Source of the DNA: Paracoccaceae bacterium
Lineage (GTDB): Bacteria; Pseudomonadota; Alphaproteobacteria; Rhodobacterales; Rhodobacteraceae
Reading direction: 5' to 3'
Length of the DNA: 64,000 bases
Assembly (NCBI GenBank): GCA_965200885.1
Contig: OZ241737.1
Coordinates: forward strand, 782,214 to 846,213
Part shown: positions 14,655-24,742 of the stretch, one piece after another
How the letters are laid out: every line of letters starts with the position of its first letter
How positions within the stretch are numbered: the first letter of the stretch is position 1
Notes under the pieces: generated by a model
Seen by the model: the letters and a program-made list of their open reading frames with translations, nothing else
What the model was told of the DNA's origin: nothing
Databases searched by the model: none
Translations under genes and position numbers: made by a program

Positions 14655-14827
14655 GGCAAGGGACCATTCATGGATAGTGACGATACCGGTGAAAGCATGA
14701 AAATTACGGCTGGCCTACCGATGGTCCCCATGGTCATGAACGGATTCGGGGAGGGTGTCCCGCCGATGTGATCCCTGTTGTCATTATCCCATGGCCAGGC
14801 CCCGAATGGATAAAAAGGGAAAGGATC

Positions 14828-15799
14828 ATGGACAGGATGATGGAAAGCCCATGGCAATGCCACCGGGAAATGGAAGCCGCTAGGGAAGAACTGGCACGGG
14901 CCAAGCGGGAAAGGGAACAGGCGCGGCTGGACAGGGCCTTTGCAGCCTTTCGGGTCGAACCACTGTCCCGGGCCATCAGTACTGGTGACGTTGGTGAAGT
15001 CGAAAGACTCTTGACATCCGGTGTACCTTGCGGTACCAGCCATATTGATGATATCACCCACCTGCATTATGCCCTGCATCAAACCCATGGCGAATGTGAC
15101 CCGGAAAGGCTGGAGACCGTCAACCGGATTGCCAGGCTCCTTGTCATGGCCGGTGTGGATCTCGCGGCACGGGAGAAGCCGGGACTATTCACACCGCTTG
15201 AACTGGCTGTCGTGAACTGGCCGGGGATTACCCTGGACACCATCCGGTTGTTGCTGGAAAGGGGTGCCGATATGCATGCCGTGAATGCCTATGGTGAAAC
15301 GCCCCTCTACCGGGTCATCGAATGCCGGGACGCACACCAGGTGGTTGAACTGCTCCTTGAATTCCAAGATGATGGCCAGCTGGACCAGTCTAGGCTCGAC
15401 GGTGACAACAGGCCGCTCCACATGGCCACCTTCTGTGGCAATGCACATGTCACCAGAATGCTTCTGGGAAGAGGGGTTACGGTCGATTGCATCAATGGCA
15501 GGGGGTACACCCCACTGCAGATCGCAGCTGCCAACGGGAATGCCGGGACAGTATCTGCCCTTCTCGAACATGGGGCCAGTATCACAGCCACCGGCCTGCA
15601 TGGTGATCAGCCGCCCCTCAGGCTGGCCATTTTTTTCAATGCCAATCCGGAAACCGTGAAACTCCTGATCGAGGCCGGGGCCAATCCCGGCAGCTGGGAA
15701 AACGAAGGGGTGGCAAAAAGATGGCCGACTCCGCTTGAAATGGCAAAACGCTTGAAGCGGGAGAGGATTGTCCGATTGTTGCTGGAAGCCGGTGCCTGA
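14828..15799 (+). CDS. ankyrin-repeat protein
   Basis: At least five ankyrin repeats (TPLELAV..LLLERGADMHAVNAYGETPL; RPLHMATFCGNAHVTRMLLGRGV; YTPLQIAAANGNAGTVSALLEHGA). The start is uncertain: 14768 or 14828. Confidence 0.75.
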   Translation: MDRMMESPWQCHREMEAAREELARAKREREQARLDRAFAAFRVEPLSRAISTGDVGEVERLLTSGVPCGTSHIDDITHLHYALHQTHGECDPERLETVNRIARLLVMAGVDLAAREKPGLFTPLELAVVNWPGITLDTIRLLLERGADMHAVNAYGETPLYRVIECRDAHQVVELLLEFQDDGQLDQSRLDGDNRPLHMATFCGNAHVTRMLLGRGVTVDCINGRGYTPLQIAAANGNAGTVSALLEHGASITATGLHGDQPPLRLAIFFNANPETVKLLIEAGANPGSWENEGVAKRWPTPLEMAKRLKRERIVRLLLEAGA

Positions 15800-18107: not shown

Positions 18108-18640
18108 TCCTAACTTCAACTATTAACTTTGCTATTCGGGATTCCTATTTTTGACTACCGGGGTTGAGCATCAAAGAATTTTTGCCCAGTGACCTTCTGG
18201 TTCCGAGTACCAACGCTTCTGTGAAATTGAAATTTACGTTCTGCGGTACGTTTGTCAAGTAATTGATGAACCCTGATCGGAGGGCTAAATCATATATTTT
18301 GGCTTGTATAACATTTCCAACATCTAATTCGATTTTCCTGATCAAAATCAAATTTTCCACCACCAGCGACCAAAACCGATCTCTGAAACATTACCTTGCG
18401 CCTCCTAGATTGACAGGGACTTCATTCTGGTTGCGGCTATCTGGTGTTGGTTCTACAACCGGCAAAATCCGACCCGGAGTTTGAACAGTTTGTTCCAGCC
18501 CTCCACTTCCGGTCGCAGGTAATTTCAGAACAAGACGGTTGGCATGGGAAACCAGCCTTCCACTGTGGTAGATTAACGCCGCCCGGAACGCCTTCATCCG
18601 GACCTGCATCCATTTTGACCAGACCTGCTGGATTGCAACC

Positions 18641-18731
18641 AATTCCCTAGTTTCCGACACATAATTGTAAAGCGTTGGAATCGAGATCCCAAGTTCCTTG
18701 GCTAATTCGCCTGGCTTGCTTTCCGGGTTCC
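18641..18731 (-). pseudogene. serine-recombinase C-terminal HTH remnant
   Basis: Encodes KPGELAKELGISIPTLYNYVSET. It aligns at nucleotide level with 24171-24260 of the intact recombinase gene. Confidence 0.55.
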
Positions 18732-18814
18732 TTATGCATTCCCTGCGGTTCATCGACAAAACAAAATGTCTTCTATCAGTTGACATATACAGGCAAATTG
18801 ACTATCTGATTGGC

Positions 18815-19093
18815 ATGATCGTGTCCTTTGTCAACAAACATCTCAGGGATCTTTGGGAAACAGGCAGGTCGCGGAGGATCGACGCAAGAATGCACGCACG
18901 CATCCTGCGTAGGCTTGATGCACTGGATAATGCATTGCAACCTAGGGATTTGGATCTTCCGGGATTCGACTTTCATGCACTCAAGGGTTATACACCAACA
19001 AGATATACGGTTCATGTAAACGGTCCCTGGTGTGTTACTTTCGAGTTTGAAGACGGGGATGCCCATATGGTAAACTATGAACAATACCACTAG
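18815..19093 (+). CDS. higB: HigB-type (RelE/ParE superfamily) toxin
   Basis: 92 aa. MIVSFVNKHLRDLWETG..LDLPGFDFHALKG..WCVTFEFEDGDAHMVNYEQYH follows the plasmid-maintenance killer protein pattern. Confidence 0.8.
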   Translation: MIVSFVNKHLRDLWETGRSRRIDARMHARILRRLDALDNALQPRDLDLPGFDFHALKGYTPTRYTVHVNGPWCVTFEFEDGDAHMVNYEQYH

Positions 19094-19103
19094 GAGGTAA
19101 AAA

Positions 19104-19406
19104 ATGATGAAGCGGAATCCCGATCACTGTCCAACCCACCCTGGTGCTCTTCTTCGTGAAGATGTATTACCGGCGGTCAAGAAATCAAAGACCGAAATAG
19201 CTTGTCTGCTCGGTATTTCCCGTCAGCACCTGCATGCCATTCTGAAAGAACAAAAGCCGGTCAGTCCGGTGGTAGCTGTTCGTCTCGGCAAGCTTTTCGG
19301 GAATGGGGCTGGCCTCTGGATCAGGATGCAGGGCGCCCATGACGAATGGCATGCTTCCAGGACGGTTGATGTATCCGAAATTCCAACATTGCACACAGCG
19401 AAGTGA
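19104..19406 (+). CDS. higA: HigA-type antitoxin (Xre HTH)
   Basis: HPGALLREDVL..TEIACLLGISRQHLHAILKEQKPVSPVVAVRLGKLFGNGAGLW. It starts 10 nt after higB. Confidence 0.8.
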   Translation: MMKRNPDHCPTHPGALLREDVLPAVKKSKTEIACLLGISRQHLHAILKEQKPVSPVVAVRLGKLFGNGAGLWIRMQGAHDEWHASRTVDVSEIPTLHTAK

Positions 19407-19410
19407 CAAA

Positions 19411-19854
19411 ATGACTCGACCGGTAAGGGAAATCTTGAAAGAAGTAAAGGAATTGGCCATAGAGTATTACGAAACGACAGGAAAACCCCTCGGGATTACA
19501 GGTGAAATTGGGGAATTTGCAGCTTCGGAAATCATGGGATTGGAGTTGACGGGGGCTCGCCAAGAAGGATATGATGCCATTCGATCTTCTGATGGTTCTC
19601 GAATACAAGTCAAAGCACGACGCCTTGTTTCAGTAAATCCAGGAAGGGTACCCAAAATAGATACTGACAAGGAATTCGACAGTGTCATGCTGGTTATGCT
19701 TGGAAAAGATTATAAAGTTCGGGAAATCTGGGAAGCAAGGCGGGAAGCCGTAATCACCAGGCTTGATGAACCGGGTTCAAAAGCACGAAATGAAAGACGG
19801 TCAATGGGGGTAAGTCAATTCAAGTCAATTGCCACAAAAGTATGGCCATTGTAA
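19411..19854 (+). CDS. small PD-(D/E)xK nuclease-like protein
   Basis: Starts 5 nt after the higA stop. Pattern GEIGEF..(19 aa)..GYDAI..(7 aa)..IQVKAR fits an E...D...Q-x-K restriction-endonuclease core. Confidence 0.5.
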   Translation: MTRPVREILKEVKELAIEYYETTGKPLGITGEIGEFAASEIMGLELTGARQEGYDAIRSSDGSRIQVKARRLVSVNPGRVPKIDTDKEFDSVMLVMLGKDYKVREIWEARREAVITRLDEPGSKARNERRSMGVSQFKSIATKVWPL

Positions 19855-20375
19855 GGCTCGTCAAGGATGCCCTTGGTAGGTGCGTTGCAACATTCGGCTG
19901 TCTGGAATATGTATTGTTCCAGGCCTGTTTTTTGTTCACAGGCAATAAGGTTTACCCAGTAGAAACCTACTCCCTCGAAGAAATGGAGGAAAAGGTCCGG
20001 GAGTGGGATAGCGAAGAGGGGAAGGCTCTATCGGATCAACTAGGGCAGTTGATTATAAAATTTGAAAAAGCAATAAGGGATTATCCCAATTCCAAAACCG
20101 ATGGCTTGGAGGAATTGTTGGATCATCTCAAGAAAGGAGTGGATATCAGAAACATGCTTTGCCACGCTTTTTGGCCATCTCCTGACAGGAATGGTTTTAC
20201 AAAACCCTTATACTTCAAAAGGGATTTTGAATATTTTGATAAACCCGTCAATTTGGCCTTCTTGAAGCAAACAAGGCAACATACAACAGAGCTTATTCGT
20301 TTGGTCTTGAACATGGTAGCTTCAAATGGATTGGAGCTTCCAGAAAGAGGCAAACCCTCGCAGGATATTTTGTAA
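19842..20375 (+). CDS. hypothetical protein with an Rx4H (HEPN-like) motif
   Basis: Overlaps the upstream gene by 13 nt. Contains DIRNMLCHAFW (R-x4-H). No other recognisable motif. Confidence 0.4.
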   Translation: MAIVRLVKDALGRCVATFGCLEYVLFQACFLFTGNKVYPVETYSLEEMEEKVREWDSEEGKALSDQLGQLIIKFEKAIRDYPNSKTDGLEELLDHLKKGVDIRNMLCHAFWPSPDRNGFTKPLYFKRDFEYFDKPVNLAFLKQTRQHTTELIRLVLNMVASNGLELPERGKPSQDIL

Positions 20376-20416: not shown

Positions 20417-20650
20417 TCAACCCATATCCTCCCTCGCCCGCATGATGGTCTGCCGGCTTGTTTTCATTGCCCTGGCGATGGCCGGGACCGATTCCCCATC
20501 TTCAAGCCTGTCACGTACCTCCTGCCTCCGGTCCGGCAACAGCACCGTAGGCCTTCCCGGTTTTTTCCCTACGTCCGTGCCATCCCGGCATGTGTCCGTT
20601 CAATGAGAAGTTCGCGTTCGAACTGGGCAACGGCATTGATCTCGTTCATG
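20417..20650 (-). pseudogene. 3' fragment of a second serine-recombinase gene, frameshifted
   Basis: Minus-strand MNEINAVAQFERELLIERTHAGMAR. After a frameshift at an A-run it continues GKKPGRPTVLLPDRRQEVRDRLEDGESVPAIARAMKTSRQTIMRARE. The catalytic N-terminal domain is absent. Confidence 0.6.
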
Positions 20651-20670: not shown

Positions 20671-20854
20671 ATGGTGCTTATATACCTGGCTAGCCAAAAC
20701 ACCAAAAAGTTTGGAAAATCGGGAGAAGGAGACACCTTCATCCAACGAAAACAAGGCAATTGCCGAAGAAATTCACCTAAGGGCAAAAGCGATTGCGGAA
20801 TCCCTGTTCAAGGGGAAATAACCGATTATGGCTAGCCAGGTATATAAGCACCAT
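20671..20854. mobile_element. TIR element B (184 bp, variant ends)
   Basis: Perfect 25-bp inverted repeat: ATGGTGCTTATATACCTGGCTAGCC at 20671-20695 and its reverse complement at 20830-20854. It shares the TTATATAC(C/T)TG core with the other elements. The flanks ATTTTGA and ATTTTAG are only roughly similar. Confidence 0.55.
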
Positions 20855-20892: not shown

Positions 20893-21243
20893 ATGTTCGA
20901 GATGGGGAATTGTTTCCTTGAGCTGGACATCCTGGATGTCAACCATGTAAAGGGTACGGGGATGTACGGGAACGGGGAATTTGTCCCCCGCGACCTCTAT
21001 GATTTGTGCACGGCTGCCGAAAAGGATCCCAGATCACTTCGGTTGGCCCTGGGGATCCTGACAGGCAGTGAACGGGAGGAAATTGCCGGGGAAATCAAAT
21101 CATTCGGGTTCCGTGCTTCCGGCCTGGGTCGTGAACTTGTTGCGGTCCACCGGCCGGAATGGTTGTCCGGTCTCGGTCGCCGGACGGCCGACCTGATATT
21201 GTCACCTCCCGAAGTAAGGCCCGACCCGGTTCAGGGTTCCTGA
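20893..21243 (+). CDS. hypothetical protein
   Basis: ORF only. Convergent with the phosphatase-like gene. Confidence 0.3.
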   Translation: MFEMGNCFLELDILDVNHVKGTGMYGNGEFVPRDLYDLCTAAEKDPRSLRLALGILTGSEREEIAGEIKSFGFRASGLGRELVAVHRPEWLSGLGRRTADLILSPPEVRPDPVQGS

Positions 21244-22214
21244 CCTGGCAATTCCTCGCCCTTGTGATAGGCAAGGGCCTGTTCCTCATTCCAGGGATTT
21301 TCGAAAATGTACTGCAGCCGTTCAAGCAGTTCCCCGGGGGTTGTGCCTTCCAGCAAGAGGCGATTCCGTTCATGGTAGGCCCGCTGGACATTCAGTGCCG
21401 CCGCATGGAGCCGGCCTCCAAAGCCCAGCATGGAATCGGCAATGCGGGCAATCTCCCAGTTGCTGTCAATTTTATCGATTCCTGCAATGATCAGGTGGAT
21501 GGCCGAAACCCTGGGATCGCCAGTCATCATGCTGTGGGCAGCCAGGGCGGTGGCTGCCGATCTGTATTGACCCGCCGCACACCGGATCAGGAAGGAAGGT
21601 GCCCTCGCCGCATGCCATTCATTGAGAAAATCGACCAAGGGCCGGACATTCTCTTCCGATGGGGCATTGTATTTCCTTTGTTCTTCCCGGTTGTCCCAAT
21701 CCTCAATCTCAAAAGTGCGGACCGTCAGGGGCTTCTCTCCCTGAAGTGCATGAACAGCTTCCAAATCATCGCCGTACAAATGCCAACCGACCAGGGTGAA
21801 GAAGCGGATTTCAGGATGGTCCTCGAGAATGTATTCCCATGATCCACCAGCTGCAACATAGATACCTGGCCTTGTCAGATCCCCATACAGTTTTTCATGG
21901 AAGGGAAGAAGGATCTTCTGGACCGCTTGCCGATCGGGCCTAATCCAATTACGATCATATCCCGGGACATGATGGCAGAATTTTGGAACAACCCCGACAT
22001 CCGTGGGGTTGATCCGGTCAAGAAGGGCTTCCACCTCATGGGCAGGCCAGGGTTCAATGTCGTCAAGGGAAATTTTATCTTGAGGCGGGGGGAAGCTGGC
22101 CCCTTCCAATCCGGGAACCATTTTTTGCAGCAAGGGTTTTCCTGCAGCCCAGGAGTGCAGCGAAGTGGCAAGGTTTCTGGTTTTCCGGAAAAGGTTCATG
22201 GAAGTTTCCTTCAT
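21231..22214 (-). CDS. CX5R (protein-tyrosine-phosphatase-loop) protein, paralog 1
   Basis: Start set at MKETSMNLF. The longer ORF would overlap the upstream paralog. P-loop-like IRCAAGQYRSAAT. The C-terminal half aligns by eye with 22291-23157. Confidence 0.55.
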   Translation of the reverse strand: MKETSMNLFRKTRNLATSLHSWAAGKPLLQKMVPGLEGASFPPPQDKISLDDIEPWPAHEVEALLDRINPTDVGVVPKFCHHVPGYDRNWIRPDRQAVQKILLPFHEKLYGDLTRPGIYVAAGGSWEYILEDHPEIRFFTLVGWHLYGDDLEAVHALQGEKPLTVRTFEIEDWDNREEQRKYNAPSEENVRPLVDFLNEWHAARAPSFLIRCAAGQYRSAATALAAHSMMTGDPRVSAIHLIIAGIDKIDSNWEIARIADSMLGFGGRLHAAALNVQRAYHERNRLLLEGTTPGELLERLQYIFENPWNEEQALAYHKGEELPGQEP

Positions 22215-22290
22215 TGATAGCGGTTGTGGATGCTTGGGTCTGGATCCAAAACTGGAGTGTAATACAACCAACACTTGAAAATCTTCATAT

Positions 22291-23157
22291 TCAGCAACTT
22301 TTCGAAAACTGGCCGTGTCTTTTATTGTATTCAAGAGCCTGTTCCTCATCCCATGGATTGGCAAAAATCTCCTGCAAGTGATCCAGCAATTCCCCAGGAG
22401 TCGCATCTTCTCCCAGCAGCCTGTTGCGCTCGATCGTGGCCCGCTGGACATTCAGGGCCGCCGCATGGAGCCGGCCTCCAAAGCCCAGCATGGGATCGGC
22501 AATGCGGGCAATCTCCCAATTGCTATCCAGGTGGGAATGCCCGGAAATACCGGACATGACCATGCGGATGGCCGACACCGTGGGATCGCCGTTTATCATG
22601 CCGTGAGCCGCCAACGCCGTCACCGGTGAACGAAACAGTCCGGCGGAACAGCAGGTCATAAGGGACGGAAAACCGGCCGCTTGCCATTCCTTGAGAAAAC
22701 CGACCAGGGGGCGGACATTCTCCTCCGAGGGCAGGTCATCGTAAATAATGTAAGAGGATTTTGCGGGAGCCCGGGAATCACGGTCCCGAATCGAAAAGCT
22801 GCGAACCGTCAGGGAATCGTCGGCCCCTATTTGTCGGACAAACGCGCAAATCTCGTTGTCCATCTGATCATAGACATTGGCCAGAAAGCGGATTTCGGGA
22901 TGATCCACGAGGATCCGTTGCCAGCTTCCCCAACCACCAATATAGATACCGCCCCGGGTGCGGTCATGATAGGTTCTTGCCTGAAAGGCCGCCAGTTCCT
23001 TTGGTGCCCCTTTCAGCTTACGGGCCCCGGACCGGATTTCTCTGGGCCCGTGATGACAGATCTTAGGAATGGTGCCGGCATTGCTGCCGCTGAGCCGGTC
23101 AAGCATGGTGTCCAGGGAATCCCAGGGGATTTTCCTTGTCATGGAAATTATCTTCAT
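22291..23157 (-). CDS. CX5R (protein-tyrosine-phosphatase-loop) protein, paralog 2
   Basis: TCCSAGLFRSPVT. Shares the DSNWEIARIAD.MLGFGGRLHAAALNVQRA block with paralog 1. Confidence 0.55.
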   Translation of the reverse strand: MKIISMTRKIPWDSLDTMLDRLSGSNAGTIPKICHHGPREIRSGARKLKGAPKELAAFQARTYHDRTRGGIYIGGWGSWQRILVDHPEIRFLANVYDQMDNEICAFVRQIGADDSLTVRSFSIRDRDSRAPAKSSYIIYDDLPSEENVRPLVGFLKEWQAAGFPSLMTCCSAGLFRSPVTALAAHGMINGDPTVSAIRMVMSGISGHSHLDSNWEIARIADPMLGFGGRLHAAALNVQRATIERNRLLGEDATPGELLDHLQEIFANPWDEEQALEYNKRHGQFSKSC

Positions 23158-24124: not shown

Positions 24125-24742
24125 TTACTTGCCATCCTTTCCTTTCAGGACCTTGAGTCCGTTTGGTCGTAATTCACCCGTTTCCGATACATAATTGTAA
24201 AGCGTTGGAATCGAAATCCCCAATTCCCTGGCCAGTTCACTGGGCTTGGCATCACGGTCCTTCATGGCTTCTGCCAGCCCCAATACCTGGGTTGGCGTGA
24301 GTGATCTTGGACGTCCGCCCTTGCGGCCACGTGCCCGCGCGGCAGCAAGCCCTGCCCTGGTGCGTTCGGAAATGAGGGATCTTTCGTATTCAGCCAAGAC
24401 AGCAAAGAGATGGAACATCATCCGTCCCTCTGAGGTATTGGTATCCAGATTGCTGCCTTGCCCTTCCATAATCCGGAGGCCAACATCCCTTCTGGTCAAG
24501 TCTTCCACGATTCCAACGAGATGCTGAAGGCTGCGACCCAGGCGATCCAGCCGCCAGACGATCAGGGTATCACCCTGTCTCAGGACCTTGTTGCAATCAC
24601 TCCACCCCGGTAGATCCCTCCGGGTACCTGATCCGGTATCCGAATATATCCAGTCCGGAGCAACACCCGCCCTGATCAGGGCATCCATCTGCAGGTCGGT
24701 TGTCTGCTCGTGGGTCGAGACCCGCATGTATCCAATCAGCAT
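24125..24742 (-). CDS. serine recombinase (resolvase/invertase family)
   Basis: N-terminal catalytic motif LIGYMRVSTHEQ, VWRLDRLGRS, FAVLAEYERSLISERT, and a C-terminal HTH. Confidence 0.85.
   Translation of the reverse strand: MLIGYMRVSTHEQTTDLQMDALIRAGVAPDWIYSDTGSGTRRDLPGWSDCNKVLRQGDTLIVWRLDRLGRSLQHLVGIVEDLTRRDVGLRIMEGQGSNLDTNTSEGRMMFHLFAVLAEYERSLISERTRAGLAAARARGRKGGRPRSLTPTQVLGLAEAMKDRDAKPSELARELGISIPTLYNYVSETGELRPNGLKVLKGKDGK

Follow-up and report, generated by a model that had tools for sequence, protein, structure and literature searches.

Introduction

The described systems closest to the locus analysed here are type II HigBA toxin-antitoxin pairs, the BisI family of Type IIM restriction endonucleases (PMC11347163, PMC4926085), RNases of the HEPN superfamily, and HEPN genes linked to restriction systems such as PrrC-EcoprrI (PMC3710099). 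The locus is a run of four genes at positions 18815-20375 of a 64,000-nucleotide (nt) stretch of contig OZ241737.1 (assembly GCA_965200885.1) from a Paracoccaceae bacterium; this whole stretch is called the window. HigBA pairs have a toxin-first gene order and combine a HigB-like RelE-fold toxin with a HigA antitoxin of the helix-turn-helix (HTH) type. BisI-family enzymes (BisI, NhoI and Eco15I; PDB 8q5n, 8rpx and 8q5m) are small single-domain nucleases of the PD-QxK (Mrr-like) type, and in Eco15I the residues E49, D69, Q79 and K81 are essential (PMC11347163). In HEPN proteins, the motif is placed where helix 3 ends and the loop leading to helix 4 begins, and an insert can be found between helices 2 and 3 (PMC3710099).

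An earlier reading of the DNA, made from the letters and open reading frames (ORFs) without database searches (the sequence-only reading), had listed four ORFs on one strand at this place. All four are present on the + strand (lengths in amino acids, aa):

18815-19093, + strand: higB, 92 aa, RelE-fold mRNA-interferase toxin
19104-19406, + strand: higA, 100 aa, HTH antitoxin
19411-19854, + strand: gene 3, 147 aa, predicted DUF6998 / BisI-family PD-QxK restriction endonuclease
19842-20375, + strand: gene 4, 177 aa, from a solo HEPN-like family (RNxxCH motif), truncated at the N-terminus

The gap between higB and higA is 10 nt, that between higA and gene 3 is 4 nt, and genes 3 and 4 overlap by 13 nt. 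The sequence-only reading had the first gap and the overlap right and gave the middle gap as 5 nt. It proposed that the four genes, or genes 3 and 4 as a pair, form a distinct uncharacterised system. We instead consider it likely that independent conflict and defence genes have come together here as a small mosaic islet within a decayed mobile-DNA island, and that the locus is not a single four-gene system.

Genes 3 and 4 seldom meet outside one lineage

We profiled the neighbourhoods of both families. No HEPN-family gene was found within 3 kb of the nearest DUF6998 loci (0/80); these 80 loci, from many phyla and at 47-65% identity, were the best of 550 DUF6998 relatives in species-representative genomes, and the positive controls were recovered. 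Likewise, no DUF6998 gene was found near HEPN-family loci in metagenomes (0/80 for the best 80 of 344 matches, with at least 600 nt of flanking sequence upstream in 57 and downstream in 52). Five genomic members of the HEPN family, from Leptothrix, Granulicella, a Salmonella plasmid contig, Xanthobacter and genome G305, are solo genes. Among 401 genomes of the window's phylum, DUF6998 was detected in 14 and the HEPN family in 2, and the two are adjacent only in the window's own genome. Neighbour clustering and a Pfam scan of 112 flanking ORFs revealed no recurring neighbour for either family. Co-occurrence of genes 3 and 4 elsewhere, which a dedicated system would lead one to expect, is therefore largely absent outside one close cassette lineage, apart from one convergent case (locus L018). 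A reading of the four genes, or of the pair, as a distinct system is mostly not supported.

Within the lineage, the close relatives of gene 4 (71-86% identity) always have a DUF6998 gene upstream, and the flanks differ in every case. The order higB-higA-gene 3-gene 4 is also found in loci L001, L002 and L016. L003 and L004 carry the gene 3-gene 4 block next to only a 28-codon higB remnant, and L003 lacks higA. In L017, a GmrSD gene is located upstream of the block and there is no higBA; L018 also has no higBA, and integrases are found upstream. The higBA genes are thus joined to the block in only some members.

The modules of the cassette have also diverged to different degrees. Copies of HigB are 96-99% identical, and in those loci the identity of gene 3 is ~75-77%. 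For the window and L017, the synonymous divergence (dS) amounts to 0.94 in gene 3 and 0.09 in gene 4. We interpret this discordance as evidence that the cassette modules recombine independently. Ratios of nonsynonymous to synonymous divergence (dN/dS) within the lineage are 0.13-0.57 for gene 3 and 0.26-0.46 for intact gene 4 copies, indicating purifying selection on both. As judged from these comparisons, common descent together with recombination between cassette variants explains why genes 3 and 4 stay together as a two-gene block within the one close lineage.

Gene 3 is a predicted BisI-family nuclease

On the evidence of sequence and model, gene 3 encodes a BisI-family Type IIM PD-(D/E)xK restriction endonuclease with the full E-D-QxK catalytic set. 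The protein matches Pfam DUF6998 (PF22522; 8e-13) and the PADLOC model mREase_II PDLC03209 for Type II methyl-directed restriction enzymes (5e-38), and sequence searches of solved structures recovered Eco15I (3.5e-5) and NhoI (1e-3). The motifs GEIGEF, GYDAI and IQVKAR, singled out by the sequence-only reading as restriction-endonuclease-like, are present, and the E, D and QxK that it picked are the catalytic residues: E35, D55, Q66 and K68 align with E49, D69, Q79 and K81 of Eco15I. Of 114 homologues, all retain E35; D55, Q66 and K68 are each at 90% conservation or above.

The AlphaFold model of gene 3 (predicted local distance difference test score, pLDDT, of 93.9) found NhoI (2.3e-8), Eco15I (1.2e-7) and PvuII (3.5e-5) as its best Foldseek matches in the PDB, with TM-scores of ~0.55. 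The same order of relatedness, NhoI and Eco15I and then PvuII as the nearest relative outside the family, has been described for the BisI family (PMC11347163). Structure and profile searches thus led to a nuclease family and not to an unrelated fold. The sequence-only reading could not place the pairing in a named system; gene 3 can be placed, as it falls in the BisI family and PADLOC models it as mREase_II. No methyltransferase gene was detected beside gene 3 among the larger flanking ORFs scanned, a feature shared with the BisI family, and the C5-methyltransferase (PF00145) matches in the genome lie only at ~1.2 Mb from it.

Gene 3 differs from the solved enzymes in being only ~20% identical to them and in belonging to the DUF6998 / PDLC03209 subgroup, in which we found no characterised member. 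Its sequence alignment to Eco15I and NhoI ends at residue 113. The C-terminal methyl-pocket motif, (H/R)(V/I/T/M), was not located in gene 3, and a conserved C-terminal PGSKARNER...FK.I..W block could not be aligned in register with His139-Val140 of NhoI. Because this motif was not located, we can only infer that the nuclease depends on modified DNA.

Gene 4 belongs to a probable HEPN family

Gene 4 itself had no match in Pfam, NCBIfam, PADLOC, PHROG or a sequence search of the PDB. An exhaustive HMMER search recovered a family of 194 clusters at 50% identity, with most members 190-200 aa long. The motif DIRNMLCH, which the sequence-only reading took as the Rx4H signature of a HEPN RNase, is present in gene 4, and its conservation among homologues was borne out. 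The R and H of RNxxCH are the sole columns without variation when 79 diverse members are aligned. A further 118 members show no variation at R, N, C, H and W of the motif block, nor at L20, G21, R22 and E31. The N after the motif R is found in 94-100% of the sequences in these two sets.

In the AlphaFold model of P0005, an intact close relative (pLDDT 91.5), five helices are seen, at 14-43, 54-71, 76-89 (the insert), 98-117 (with the motif at 112-117) and, after a loop, 147-170. The comparison with the published description of HEPN domains covered the order of these secondary-structure elements only. The family matches that description in having Rx4-6H with a polar residue after the Arg and in its all-alpha helix order with the motif at the corresponding position. 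Of the PADLOC models, those matched most by the family are the HEPN-bearing Csx1/Csm6 and CARF_HEPN models, each matched by 10 of the 79 members (best E value 1.8e-4). From sequence and model together, we consider the gene 4 family probably HEPN.

The likeness is closest to the solo or minimal HEPN proteins and to the HEPN domains of Csx1/Csm6 (PMC3710099). Like them, the family is built of helices throughout, its R-N-x-x-x-H never varies and closes the third core helix, core helices 2 and 3 have an additional helix inserted between them, the N-terminal part holds an acidic residue that is invariant, and some members are tandem duplications. Two members, P0013 and P0142, are such tandem duplications of the HEPN-like domain, which fits a domain that works as a dimer. 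The family differs from described HEPN proteins in its own near-invariant N-terminal PT...FWExLGR motif and in the Cys before the His, and it has no MNT, antitoxin or CARF partner. The copy in the window differs further in lacking the N-terminal motif.

The alternative is that the family is an unrelated helical protein, with R, N, C, H and W conserved for binding or for other chemistry. In favour of it, Pfam HEPN models matched none of the 118 members, Foldseek searches of the PDB and BFVD with a family model gave no significant match (one viral protein at E = 0.1) and thus no solved HEPN structure, and sequence and profile searches of the PDB returned only noise. The family also lacks an antitoxin-like partner and is often found among housekeeping genes. 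Comparison by hhalign with HEPN_MAE_28990 (P = 0.0017) and HEPN_RiboL-PSP (P = 0.0043), using comparison sequences taken from genomes, puts the motif in register with both Pfam families but at a probability of 15% or less. Against the alternative, R-N-x-x-x-H never varies and occupies the HEPN-defining position, weak matches to the HEPN parts of Csx1/Csm6 models recur, and both the motif register and the tandem-domain members agree with HEPN. We therefore regard a non-HEPN protein as unlikely. The proposal of an Rx4H HEPN RNase stands as far as the motif, the most conserved feature of the family, and the helix order are concerned, and has no counterpart in a significant profile or fold match.

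Some family members carry the source names 'MAE_28990/MAE_18760-like HEPN' and 'RiboL-PSP-HEPN'. These were not reproduced by Pfam models on the same proteins, and we treated them as leads only. A zinc or other metal site formed by H10, H12, C116 and H117 was considered and rejected, as conservation of H10 and H12 among the diverse members is only 59%. One member, P0046, is fused to a DarT1-associated NADAR antitoxin domain (PF22397; 1.5e-88). A separate HEPN_RiboL-PSP match (Pfam, 4.9e-8) is located elsewhere in the same genome, outside the window (G000:C1:534243-534665), and is unrelated to gene 4.

A deletion in the window removed the start of gene 4

Alignment of the window with five related loci (L001, L002, L003, L016 and L017) revealed a deletion, as read in the assembled sequence, that is specific to the window among the aligned loci:

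19870..19877, + strand: scar left by a 94-nt deletion, with CTTGG microhomology

The deleted segment lay between CYTTGG direct repeats. It comprised the spacer after gene 3, an AGGG ribosome-binding site, the native ATG, and codons 1-19 of gene 4 (MEYPxQFPTHRHxxxFWEE). Gene 4 of the five related loci begins 24-54 nt downstream of gene 3 and has its own AGGG ribosome-binding site; the spacer of L003 has a further 10-nt gap. Intact relatives of gene 4 are 186 aa long and all start with MEYPxQFPTHRHxxxFWEELGRC, whereas gene 4 in the window starts with MAIVRLVKDALGRC. The lost residues include P8, T9, F16, W17 and E18, which are 80-99% conserved in two family alignments.

The deletion left the gene 4 frame in phase with an ATG that lies within the 3' end of gene 3 and has no Shine-Dalgarno sequence in front of it, and the 13-nt overlap exists because of this in-frame fusion. 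The tight packing had been offered as an argument for coupling between genes 3 and 4; the overlap is a deletion scar and not ancestral, and the argument falls. Pairwise dN/dS values for gene 4 are higher in pairs with the window (0.49-0.76) than among intact copies (0.26-0.46), which is compatible with, though no proof of, relaxed constraint. From its sequence, the window's gene 4 protein is probably impaired, or expressed only through coupling to gene 3.

Internal promoters and terminators were sought across the cassette. None was convincing, and their counts were no higher than in shuffled sequence. A hairpin resembling a terminator, with a T-run after it, lies at 19900-19924 in the conserved 5' portion of gene 4; the region has no more sites of this kind than expected from shuffling.

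The first two genes are an ordinary HigBA pair

The assignment of genes 1 and 2 to higBA was confirmed. HigB matches the Pfam model PF05015 HigB-like_toxin over positions 2-91 of 91 (6e-14; 52.7 bits, cut-off 27) and PHROG 3066 'toxin of TA system' (1e-28), and HigA matches the NCBIfam equivalog TIGR02607 antidote_HigA (5e-20; 71.1 bits, cut-off 47.7). Toxin-first order and a RelE-fold toxin with an HTH antitoxin, both above curated cut-offs, are shared with known HigBA systems, and the sole oddity here is the presence of two extra genes downstream with almost no spacer. By family membership, genes 1 and 2 are an ordinary type II HigBA toxin-antitoxin pair, and the function we assign to them follows from that membership.

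The copies of HigB in L001, L002 and L016 are 96-99% identical to that of the window. Gene callers gave HigB in these three loci as 67 aa. The 92-aa start is probably the correct one, as the longer ORF is conserved at 96-99% and spans the full Pfam profile.

Competing explanations

Several observations weigh against the mosaic reading, and some of them concern a functional tie between genes 3 and 4. The block is kept in at least five flanking contexts (the window, L001, L002, L003/L004, L016 and L017), seven loci with different flanks, with and without higBA, and both genes are under purifying selection. That HEPN genes can adjoin restriction nucleases is well recognised: no fewer than 16 HEPN clades have been linked to restriction-modification systems, and the mechanism outlined next has been proposed (PMC3710099). 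Following the logic of PrrC-EcoprrI, genes 3 and 4 would be a two-pronged defence pair in which the nuclease hits modified phage DNA and the HEPN RNase serves as back-up abortive infection. The RNase would be restrained by the nuclease, or activated when the nuclease is neutralised, and would then shut down translation. L018 adds a DUF6998 gene, 65% identical to gene 3, that is convergent with a consensus-like HEPN-family gene. Common descent of this arrangement with the cassette was rejected, as the L018 HEPN gene falls outside the clade of the cassette and P0012 in a tree with poorly resolved deep nodes, and by sequence L018 looks like a second, independent juxtaposition of the two families. 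That two rare families have come together twice is a hint of some functional affinity, and this is the main reason why we keep the pair hypothesis, which we nonetheless hold to be rather improbable. The locus shares with restriction-linked HEPN systems a HEPN-type gene directly adjoining a restriction nuclease gene in a mobile context. It differs from them in that the linkage is limited to one lineage and one further case, with both partners normally alone, and in having no methyltransferase, specificity subunit or ABC (ATP-binding cassette) ATPase domain. The pair hypothesis also has against it the empty censuses (0/80 and 0/80), the solo habit of two families neither of which needs the other, the discordant dS values that point to independent recombination, and the state of the window's copies, with gene 3 intact and the HEPN partner missing its start and conserved N-terminus. 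Two further reservations concern single genes: gene 4 of the window may retain function, since its frame is still open, and the modification dependence of gene 3 is predicted by analogy with relatives only ~20% identical to it.

A larger unit, in which all four genes form one operon-level, toxin-antitoxin-anchored defence cassette and HigBA regulates or stabilises the nuclease and HEPN cargo, would account for the gaps of 10 nt and 4 nt followed by an overlap, for the lack of a convincing internal promoter or terminator, and for the identical gene order in L001, L002 and L016. However, GmrSD takes the place of higBA in L017, integrases lie upstream in L018, and L003 retains 28 codons of higB and no higA. 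HigB at 96-99% identity next to gene 3 at ~75-77% suggests a recently exchanged module and not a co-evolving unit, and we regard this cassette as very unlikely. A bolder idea makes the solo RNxxCH family, marked by its near-invariant N-terminal PT...FWExLGR, a HEPN defence effector that is self-contained and has yet to be described; a BisI-like modification-dependent nuclease would have recruited it at least twice, in the cassette lineage and in L018, giving a two-layer DNA-plus-RNA defence against phages with modified cytosines. We offer it as a speculative and improbable extension.

Under the mosaic reading, which we prefer, gene 3 would be a stand-alone BisI-family enzyme, a homodimer by analogy with NhoI and Eco15I. 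It would cut incoming DNA that carries methylated or hydroxymethylated cytosines, and would need no methyltransferase. Members of the gene 4 family would be rare solo proteins of ~190 aa, most likely HEPN-type RNases that rely on the unvarying Arg and His of RNxxCH. What we say of enzymatic activities, of co-transcription from the higBA promoter and of a defence phenotype is inferred throughout.

The surrounding island

The cassette is flanked on both sides by remnants with recombinase-like features:

18391..18786, - strand: remnant ORF at the left cassette edge, recombinase-type HTH (weak HTH matches)
20417..20545, - strand: candidate resolvase-like HTH fragment just 3' of gene 4, a 42-aa ORF (MLLPDRRQEVRDRLEDGESVPAIARAMKTSRQTIMRAREDMG) proposed from its sequence pattern only

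A 101-nt direct repeat (18641-18741 and 24171-24271; 77% identity) consists of duplicated ends of a recombinase gene and brackets a 5.5-kb segment that holds the cassette. Remnants of an IS630-type transposase are found in the same island, and related cassettes are also located near resolvase genes.

Just downstream of the cassette, at 20671-20854, two 29-nt inverted repeats (97% complementary, 126 nt apart) form a small element resembling a miniature inverted-repeat transposable element. Beyond it are two tandem paralogous ORFs on the - strand (21231-22451 and 22291-23157; 406 and 288 aa) with no Pfam match, which have conserved blocks in common that appear as repeats D1, D2 and D4 (71-80% identity). 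The same island also contains an intact ankyrin-repeat protein gene at 14768-15799 (Ank_2; 9e-45).

Implications

The apparent novelty of the locus is largely cleared up: structures have been solved for the family of the nuclease, and the tight packing of genes 3 and 4 was left by the deletion. The gene 4 family, a probable HEPN family, is missed by the current Pfam and PADLOC models, and a profile of its own would improve the annotation of defence islands. The DUF6998 subgroup is widespread, with 550 relatives in species-representative genomes, and as we found no characterised member, one biochemical test would annotate many genes.

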